Below are positions 17,601 through 20,600 of a DNA stretch of 64,000 bases, piece after piece. Under the pieces are notes generated by a model. That model worked only from the letters and a program-made list of their open reading frames with translations. It had not been told where the DNA came from and did not search any database. Source of the DNA: Lama guanicoe (taxonomy: Eukaryota); NCBI GenBank assembly GCA_013239625.1, contig MU053588.1, forward strand, positions 1,141,988 to 1,205,987. The letters run 5' to 3'. The number at the start of each line of letters is the position of its first letter. Position 1 is the stretch's first letter. Made by a program: the position numbers and the translations under genes.

Positions 17601-20600
17601 TCTGGTGGTTTTTCCATCTCTGACCCACAAATCCTGACCCTCTGTCCCCTCAATTCTGACCCCAACACTAAACATGCCTCCCCTAATAGCCCTCTAAATT
17701 CTATCCCTCCTTCTCACCAGTTCTGGTCCCTAAATGCTACTCCTATCTCAACACTGATCCTCAAATTCAGATGCCCCTATGTATAGCTTTTTCTGTCCAG
17801 TGTGACAGAAAATAAATTCTAATGCTGTTTCCTTAACATTTACCCTTCAATGACCTTGTCTCCACATCTTTGATCCCTAAATTCTTTCCCTTTCGGCTAC
17901 ATTCTAATCCCTAAAACTCCTGACCCCAAAATGCTGATCTTAGCCTCTCTATCACTAACCTCCAACTGAGGTAAATGGGGTCTATTTGTCCCTAGGCTTG
18001 TACCCCAAATCTGGCCTTTCTGCCTTATCTGACGCTCCTGGCCTCCAAACTCTAATTTTTCTGGTTTTCACTCTCAAACTCATCTTCACTCTACCCATCT
18101 TTGATCCTTAAACCCCAACTGTCACTCCTGGCTCTGCCCCCACCACGGCTCCGCCACTCCCCCCCCCATTAAGACCCTCCCCTTGTCCCTGCATCTGCAC
18201 CTCCATTAAGGACCCTCCCCATCCCCACCACATTCTCTGAGACTCTCCTGAATGCTCACCTTTGGTGGAGGGGTGTGTCCAGGCCACCGTGCTGTGGATC
18301 CGGAGAGGGCAGCCATTGAACAACTTTACAAGAAGGGCACATCCCTGGGTGGGCCACAGGGGCAGGGCAGCAGCCCATCCAGCAGAAGAGAGGAGGGGAC
18401 AGGAAGGTGCCATGGTTAAGACTCTGGAGTGCCAAGGTTCAAATCCTGCCTCCTCAAAGGTTTATGACCTTGGAAAGCTACCTACCCCGCTGTGCCTCAG
18501 TTTCCCCATTTTGAAATGGGGGATAATATCTATCTCTGTGCTATCTATCTCCATCTGTGAAGGTATACACCATGTAAAGACATGAGGTCAGTGTCTGGCA
18601 CAGAGGAGCTGCTCAACAAATGTCACCTGTCATCATTATTAGTCTTCAGCCCCCCCACCCCAACCAGGTATCCCCAGCCCCAGTCAGAGGTGTGAGTCCT
18701 CAGCACAGCTGGCCTCACCTTTCTCTTCATCTTTTCTTTCTTGGGGGGCAAAAGCAGGGGCTGGTCAGGATCCCGGAGGGCTGGGTTCCAGAGTGAAGGT
18801 TCTGAGATGGGGTGGGGAAAATCAGCCCCCAAAGCCCCCACAGTACCCCTGGGCTCAGCTGCCCTTCATCCCCAGTCCCCCCAGGACCCTCGTCAGATGG
18901 AGAACGGAACTTGGGCTTTGGAAACAGAGAGGGAGGGTGGGGAAATACATGAGATGATCTCAGAGAGAGGGCACCCTGCAGTCTGCCTCTGCCAGGACTG
19001 ATGCTGGATCATGGGTCTGACCCTCCCCACAATATCCGACCACCACTCCAGCCTTCCCCTCTAACCGCCCCCCAACAACATCAACATACTCTGGCAACTA
19101 AAGGGTGAATATTGGGTACAGCAGGAGTTTCCGAGGACCAGCTACAGATGAGTGTTCATCAGGCTAAATACTTTGAGTCCCACCCCTAGGTTCAGGGATG
19201 CCACTTCCAGATCCCAGTGTGATCATCATCCTGGTCGTCCCAGACTTCAAGAGACCTAGTGTCCTAGACTCCAGCCCTGGAGAGCTCGGTATCCCAGCAT
19301 CTGTGGACCCTGGCCTCCATGGCCCCCAGCCCCCCAGCTCTGGCCCAGGACCTTACCTTGGGGGGTAGAGGAGGAGGTATGTCTTCTGCGAGGGTGGGGC
19401 TGAAACACACAGATGGGTTAAGTGGGGGAGGAGGGTGTGGGGAGCAAGGACTGGGGTGGGTTAGGGCTGGAGATCTGAGCTCAGGAGGGCCAGGATGTGA
19501 CTCTGTCTGGGCTGGAGCTGAGGGTGAAAGGACTAATAACCATGATGATCATAGTAACAGCAACTCTTGGATATCAGTGTTCACAGTGCATTAGGTCTCT
19601 GCATCATCACAGCCACCTAGTAGCACAGGTCATATGAGCTCCTGGGGGTCGGGTTCTCACTTGGTGCCAGGCGCGCCGCATGGGAGCCTATTTTACAGAT
19701 GAGATGTGTGGAATGGATCTCCCCCAGGCCTGGGGCTGAGGGAGATGGGGGCCTGGGTTGACTCCTGGGGTTGAGGTTGAGTTCTGGGACTGAGGGTCTG
19801 GAGGGGGCAGAATTCCCAGGGGCTGAGGTTCAGTCTGAGTTTGGGTGAGAAGATGAAGAAAGATGAGGGCCAGGGGTTGAGGGTTACGGCTGCAGTTGAG
19901 GTCTGGGAGTTGGAGCAACATCTAGGAGGAGCTAGGGACTAGGATGTGGCAGGGGGTCCAGGGTTGAGTTGGGGTGAGGTTAGGGGTCAAGGGTTGGTGG
20001 GGAGGAGAGTGGGGGCTGGTCTGGGAGGGTCAGGGTTAGGGTAAAGGAAGGTGTGGGTACTGAGGGTCCAGCTAGGGGTCAGGGCTGAGTGGTGGAAGGA
20101 AGGCAGGGGCTGAGGTTGGGGTCATGGACGGTGGGGCTGGGTGGGGTCTGAGGCGCTCTCTCACATGTCCACGTCATCGTAGTCATCGTCGGACTCTGAC
20201 AGGTTCCTCCTGAGGAGGGACAGGTATGAGCCTCGGGCGGTCCCTACACAGATCCCAGCCCCCCTCCCATGCTGAGGGTCCCTGACCTAGGACTGCTGCT
20301 CTTGAAGTCTCCAGGGGGCTGTAAGCGAGCCTGTGGGATAGGAAAGAGTCAGCAGTGGCCCGGGGGAGGGGAGGGCGGCGGGGCAGTGGGGAGGCATCTC
20401 ACCGTGTCAGCTGTGGGTCTGGACTCCATGCCTCTGAGCTTCCTGAACTCCATGTGCCGCCCTGGGGGGTGGGGTGGGGTGGGATGCAGGTGACACACAG
20501 TGAACTGGGGACATGGATTCGGGAATAGAAAGAGTAGAACTGGGGTGGGGGAGTGGTCTGCAGCCAGGATCTTAGGACTGGAGCTGTCCCTTCAGGGGAG

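Follow-up and report, generated by a model that had tools for sequence, protein, structure and literature searches.

In a 64,000-nucleotide (nt) stretch of Lama guanicoe DNA (contig MU053588.1, forward-strand positions 1,141,988 to 1,205,987; here called the window), the gene MAP4K1, encoding the kinase HPK1, is as assembled broken at its coding exon 18: the second half of that exon is missing together with its donor and part of the following intron. We consider a local assembly or consensus error at exon 18, at a probability of about one half, to be the best explanation, such an error being slightly more likely than a real lesion carried by the animal. The lesion in the assembled sequence is as such structural, and not a statistical signal, and its interpretation is weighed below against the state of the gene in related species, the composition of the missing part and two amino acid changes located close to the junction.

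The exons of MAP4K1 were mapped by tblastn and spliced chaining against the isoform X1 proteins of Camelus (XP_032341985.1, P0016) and alpaca (XP_072823233.1, P0055), which represent the same gene as that found in the window. The coding region, of 31 coding exons, occupies 11692..26674 on the minus strand, with the start ATG at 26674 and the stop at 11692. Exons 1–17 have a combined length of 1197 nt and close in phase 0 with ...PPPLPPK, with residues 1–399 being identical to those of alpaca, while exons 19–31 chain perfectly given one carried base. All the other 30 coding exons are open and the remaining 29 introns are all of the GT-AG type, leaving the exon 18 junction as the sole broken one, in agreement with the original prediction, which had described it as the only phase-inconsistent junction of the gene. 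Pfam analysis of the alpaca protein placed the kinase domain (Pkinase) at residues 17–273 and the CNH domain at 510–793, and the N-terminal kinase domain is encoded in the window.

As determined from the sequence and the chaining, exon 17 (43 nt, 19357..19399, minus strand, as for all MAP4K1 features given here) ends in phase 0 with the donor CAAG/gtaagg. Exon 18 begins after a normal acceptor (...tttccaaag/), and its remnant comprises the first 75 of the expected 163 nt (18841..18915, PKFRS...SPGVL), agreeing with alpaca P0055 at 25 of 25 residues and having no donor after it. The remnant is followed by a 39-nt 3′ tail of intron 18 (18802..18840, TGGGGGCTTTGGGGGCTGATTTTCCCCACCCCATCTCAG), containing a branch-like CTGAT, a pyrimidine tract and AG, and then by exon 19 (83 nt, 18719..18801), which starts in phase 1 (AA CCT) and encodes the fourth proline-rich motif. 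Exon 20 (85 nt, 18260..18344) starts in phase 0, and the CNH domain, as placed by Pfam, begins just past it. The deletion junction is hence located at about 18840/18841. Because the reading of the 39-nt tail recurs in the intron tails of read-through open reading frames (ORFs) of other mammals (P0003, P0058, P0060), it represents ancestral intron rather than filler sequence. This anatomy is the one originally proposed, including the 75 coding nt, the tail with its CTGAT and AG and the phase-1 start of exon 19; the length of 83 nt and the end at 18719 of that exon are small corrections.

The window has no counterpart of residues 425–453 of the alpaca and Camelus proteins, VRCASGPPPRTPQLGPPPATRSPHLTAHS (VRCAS...TAHS), which include the third proline-rich motif. 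The missing coding part thereby amounts to 87 nt (29 residues) plus 1 nt of a split codon, in total 88 nt, and an intact exon 18 would therefore be 163 nt long and the protein 821 residues. The exon 18 donor is absent from the window alongside these 88 nt. The earlier estimate that about 88 coding nt, the donor and part of the intron were missing from a 163-nt exon was thus borne out. The protein length that had been summed from it was 820 residues, compared with the 821 computed here. As to the intron, the read-through ORF P0003, resembling proteins of sheep and deer, has at the exon 18 site an in-frame intron of 31 codons (93 nt), and introns of similar size are found at this site in two further mammals. 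If intron 18 of the window had also been about 93 nt, the missing intron part would be roughly 54 nt and the total loss roughly 142 nt. With regard to the proline-rich motifs, both motif 2 (PPPLPPKPK) and motif 4 (with a P469L change, see below) are present in the window, and the coding sequence for GPPPRTPQLGPPP, being motif 3 by order (PMC2193495), is not, so that the window does not encode the full set of four motifs of HPK1.

The full exon 18 is carried by alpaca XP_072823233.1 (isoform X1, 821 residues, encoded on a 77.9-Mb contig and without a low-quality flag) as well as by the models of Camelus ferus, C. bactrianus and C. dromedarius. Comparing the window with alpaca, 790 of 792 comparable residues were identical, with 424/424 upstream of the gap and 366/368 downstream thereof, and D354, D464 and T808 were common to the two and different from Camelus, which by itself identifies the window as South American camelid DNA. 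The alpaca and Camelus proteins differ from the window in having residues 425–453, and the window in addition has L469 and V501. All of the matches to a query made without the missing part (40/40) nonetheless contained that part, although for P0002 only its first 14 residues, and it was present in each of the 61 mammalian sequences examined that reach the 3′ half of exon 18. With exon 18 complete in the annotated proteins of alpaca and of three Camelus species, the lesion is a feature neither of camelids nor of the whole alpaca tribe. Neither an inactivating lesion shared with a related species nor a second independent lesion was found among alpaca, the three Camelus species and the remaining parts of the gene. 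A lineage-level loss of HPK1, as had been suggested at first, is not supported in view of these proteins with full exon 18, among them the nearly identical one of alpaca.

In the explanation that we favour, a short GC-rich stretch of about 140 nt would have been dropped in the assembly and its flanks joined without any N. The dropped part would consist of the 88-nt 3′ end of exon 18, rich in proline codons, its donor and about 54 nt of a G-rich mini-intron. The MAP4K1 of the animal itself would then be an ordinary intact gene for an 821-residue HPK1, and the lesion would be absent from the DNA of the animal. We favour such an artefact because the source is a draft assembly with N runs, the missing part is GC-rich, the relatives are intact and there is no other damage to the gene. 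The source assembly comprises 2,050,533,365 bases in 55,231 contigs. The sole N run in the window consists of 33 N at 42588–42620 and the next one in 264 kb is of 266 N at contig position 1075868, with such N gaps of variable size being typical of scaffolds built from paired reads. Codons for Pro, Gly, Ala and Arg abound in the missing part, and the intron after exon 18 reads as Gly/Trp/Arg runs in three other mammals (P0003, P0019, P0001), a composition suggesting that the missing stretch was of the GC-rich type lost by older assemblies. According to PMC9516821, false losses affect 26–60% of genes in vertebrate assemblies of earlier date, with a bias towards GC-rich sequence. The cases described there likewise involve a conserved gene, loss of a GC-rich exon, a fragmented assembly of older style and a near relative whose better assembly retains the intact copy; they were however mostly marked by gaps or N, or located at 5′ ends, whereas the loss in MAP4K1 is internal, clean and unmarked. 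Presence of the full 163-nt exon in another assembly, which the original prediction had named, for the same species, as a sign of an artefact, was found for the nearly identical alpaca genome at the level of its annotated protein, and the collapse of GC-rich sequence in a draft assembly, initially given as an alternative, must be regarded as at least as likely as a real lesion.

Several observations weigh against an assembly error. The junction carries neither an N nor any other mark, with the nearest N run being 23.7 kb away, and the stretches between gaps are longer than 100 kb, so that there is no obviously poor patch and the junction does not adjoin a gap. The flanks are clean, as seen from the perfect agreement of all 25 remnant residues with alpaca and from the conserved intron tail. 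The missing piece was, moreover, not found on any other contig of the source assembly, when searched for using both the 501-nt region, which gave 1 match, and a 58-residue alpaca peptide across the gap, which matched only exon 19 (query residues 37–57) in addition to 20 chance proline-rich matches with identities of at most 56%. The local repeats at the junction were only short G-run matches, none of which explains a collapse.

Some support for a real lesion comes from the only two amino acid differences between the window and alpaca, both of which are located within 560 nt downstream of the deletion junction. Codon 469 (18755..18757) in the fourth proline-rich motif of exon 19 is CTG and encodes Leu; the residue is Pro in alpaca and in 55 of the 56 mammalian sequences aligned, the sole exception being a mis-modelled entry. 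Codon 501 (18285..18287) in exon 20, just before the CNH domain, is GTG and encodes Val, the residue being Ala in alpaca and in all 53 of the mammalian sequences aligned. Elsewhere, over the remaining 736 comparable codons, there is no amino acid change against alpaca. By our own arithmetic, the chance of both changes falling within these 56 of 792 codons is about 0.005, or about 0.003 if CpG sites (about 5 of about 90) are taken as the basis. If the corresponding alpaca codons end in G, both P469L and A501V would fit CpG-to-TpG transitions on the coding strand. A haplotype that has had a history of its own would account for such a cluster better than a simple dropout would. None of the simple models explains it well, however: uniformly relaxed constraint fits poorly because the changes would then scatter over the 368 downstream codons, there is too little time for two such changes because the divergence among these animals is only about 0.1–0.3%, and ordinary sequencing error fits poorly because such error has no CpG preference. 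The cluster may derive from a haplotype of own history, from a single complex mutational event or from foreign or poor data patched into the assembly.

The strongest competitor of an assembly error is that the deletion is a real and recent allele, which taken as a whole we regard as a serious contender at somewhat less than even odds, most of this probability lying with a null allele and a small part with one rescued in frame. The larger component, a germline deletion occurring in one species of South American camelid as a private, polymorphic or fixed variant and acting as a null or strong hypomorph, is by itself plausible but less likely than an assembly error. A contiguous sequence with a clean junction and no N is what would be expected of it, and the two CpG-type changes on the same strand just downstream would fit either a haplotype free of constraint or one complex mutational event. 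The loss could also be tolerable, as HPK1-deficient T cells are described as viable and hyper-responsive in PMC6669380. It is, on the other side, difficult to reconcile with the intact genes of alpaca and Camelus, with the lesion being the single inactivating one and accompanied by no change in the other 736 comparable codons, and with the age of the loss, which at about 0.1–0.3% divergence would be so recent that one would not expect two neutral changes to have arisen at about 5 CpG sites. Nor did the protein searches described below find any independent sequence with the junction.

Should the DNA be as assembled, the transcript can be computed from the exon structure. Read-through from the exon 18 remnant adds 37 residues and ends at a premature TGA (18727..18729, codon 462), yielding a 461-residue product that keeps the kinase and loses the CNH domain, exactly as had been predicted, including the 37 novel residues. 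The CNH exons are all intact, yet the CNH domain cannot be read in frame with the kinase, as the frame breaks at 18841/18840. Skipping of exon 18 alone leads to a stop at codon 424. At 39 nt, what is left of the intron falls below the length that could be spliced out. Together with the exon 18 remnant and exon 19 it makes up a 197-nt unit, bounded by a normal acceptor at one end and by a strong donor (AAG/gtgagg) at the other. Because exon 18 has no donor, its intron remnant is too short and the unit has both an acceptor and a strong donor, the fused and frame-shifted 197-nt exon would be the main product, and its mRNA would be a target of nonsense-mediated decay (NMD). A real deletion would thus be expected to yield, if any protein at all, a kinase of 461 residues that retains proline-rich motifs 1 and 2, and the intact splice signals of the fused exon are in keeping with such an allele.

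We also searched for independent sequences of either allele. Exact look-up of 4 junction-spanning ORFs in protein collections found none of them (0/4), and a search with the frame-2 ORF gave 5 matches among 6 candidates, none being from the alpaca tribe. A representative protein library gave 7 matches, none of which crossed the junction as the window does; 6 of the 7 ended at query residues 56–59, with the junction located after residue 56, and the seventh was an unrelated repeat protein. Using alpaca residues 386–509 as query among shorter proteins, 13 matches were obtained of 117 candidates, with no further transcript fragment from the tribe. Among the 97 proteins compared, only P0055 had the tribe markers, and neither L469 nor V501 nor one of the three hypothetical junction peptides occurred in any of them. 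The absence of the junction from protein collections is weak evidence for an artefact, because the intact allele of the tribe was likewise not found as a genomic ORF. Scans of genome contigs and metagenome contigs for DNA of a relative covering the MAP4K1 region found nothing. Among sequencing runs, 14 DNA runs from five organisms contained 0.92–0.97 of the sampled 31-letter words over 9.9 kb, which by our own calculation from these word shares corresponds to a difference from the window of about 0.1–0.3%. Six RNA runs (labelled as reproductive-system, tick metagenome or another organism) contained 0.11–0.20 of the words of 13500–23400. A fully spliced MAP4K1 mRNA could give only about 0.12 of these words, counting from exon lengths, and since the shares exceed that value, these runs also include intron sequence, derived from a near-identical camelid. 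Neither the DNA nor the RNA runs speak for or against the junction. MAP4K1 was not linked with alpaca or camelids in the literature searched, supplements excluded.

That a real deletion would be compensated by remodelled splicing, thus keeping HPK1 in frame, is improbable. Two routes can be envisaged. The first uses the sole phase-1 cryptic donor able to leave a spliceable intron (AGG/GTCCTG, with the GT at 18886..18887), giving a 28-nt exon, an 86-nt intron and an in-frame product computed to 776 residues, lacking most of exon 18 with motif 3 included. The second skips exons 18 and 19 together, giving an in-frame product of 739 residues without motifs 3 and 4. The weakness and phase of the cryptic donor, the 86-nt intron and the in-frame nature of the double skip agree with the original prediction, while its product lengths of 775 and 738 residues were not reproduced. 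Both products would keep the kinase and the CNH domain, and the downstream exons are perfectly preserved, as would be required for such a rescue. When donors were scored on a matrix built from the 29 real donors of the gene itself, with leave-one-out scoring of these, the cryptic donor however reached 0.3 bits compared to a median of 7.6 for the real donors, with 27 of the 29 scoring above it, and as many as 288 of the 719 GT sites in the gene scored at least 0 bits. Exon 19 contains no GT at all. Loss of the 3′ half of exon 18 was not found in any of 14 shorter annotated isoforms from other mammals, the nearest cases being an alternative acceptor within exon 19 (P0004) and a frame-breaking skip of exon 19 (P0036).

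Least probable of all is that the stretch of exons 18–20 stems from another source, such as a collapsed MAP4K1-like duplicate, a gap filled by poor reads or a gene-conversion tract, for although such a source would account jointly for the deletion and both substitutions, as three derived changes within 560 nt, and although diverged MAP4K1-like models with intron sequence in Camelus dromedarius speak for a duplicate in at least one camelid assembly, the genome of the window has a single MAP4K1 locus (9/9 matches on one contig), the markers of the dromedary copies (PEFRS, VEGPW, ETSLW and MKEKMKRK) are all missing from the window, those copies have P469 and A501, and exons 18–20 are otherwise as in alpaca at 79 of 81 residues. 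A chimera with a paralogue was rejected on the grounds of the single locus, the missing dromedary-copy markers and the P469 and A501 of the copies.

As an observation in its own right, the MAP4K1-like models of Camelus dromedarius (P0062, P0063, P0064, P0057, P0097 and P0036) are located on separate 950-kb and 215-kb contigs, with many substitutions (PEFRSPSVEGPW, ETSLW, MKEKMKRK) and with ORFs reading into intron 19. This suggests that a decaying genomic duplicate of MAP4K1 may exist in camels. No second copy of MAP4K1 was seen in the genome of the window itself.

The assembly error being our preferred explanation, its main consequence would be that gene-loss screens and annotations based on the source assembly would report a false loss of MAP4K1, and the case would illustrate that an unmarked internal deletion can mimic gene inactivation. 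We consider it unlikely that the deletion is real and either homozygous or fixed in one species of South American camelid, which would thereby be a natural HPK1 knock-out or severe hypomorph. If true, there would be a mammal in which the full-length form of the kinase acting as a brake on T- and B-cell receptor signalling is missing, and the loss would be very recent, possibly through one complex event that also left the two strand-coordinated C-to-T changes. Much would be learnt from such a healthy large mammal about long-term loss of the HPK1 brake, and the finding would matter for camelid immunology. HPK1 is also a drug target in immuno-oncology.

In PMC2193495, HPK1 is described as an N-terminal Ste20-type kinase with four proline-rich motifs binding SH3 adaptors and with Tyr-379, in DDDYDDV, just before the second of these motifs; it is presented as a negative regulator of T-cell receptor signalling via SLP-76 and Gads in PMC6669380. 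The gene in the window shares with human and mouse HPK1 the kinase, the central proline-rich linker and the C-terminal CNH exons, but differs from them in lacking the coding sequence of the third motif and, as assembled, in having CNH out of frame. A natural N-terminal fragment of HPK1 arises post-translationally, by caspase cleavage of the full-length protein. Like that fragment, the 461-residue product would be a kinase plus linker without CNH; unlike the fragment, which is made from full-length protein, it would be the sole product, from an mRNA that is likely degraded.

MAP4K1 is flanked in the window by the 3′ end of an ion-channel gene (7800–10860, plus strand; weak Pfam match to Ion_trans, 16.5 bits) and by an EIF3K-family gene (27980–31400, plus strand; CSN8_PSD8_EIF3K at 23.6 bits against a cut-off of 23.7), a setting for which the agreement is weak by Pfam. 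We take these neighbours to be RYR1 and EIF3K, respectively. Within intron 19 of MAP4K1, finally, the stretch 18380–18640 (minus strand) contains ccccatttcaaaatggggaaactgaggcacag and resembles what we presume to be an old mammalian interspersed repeat.

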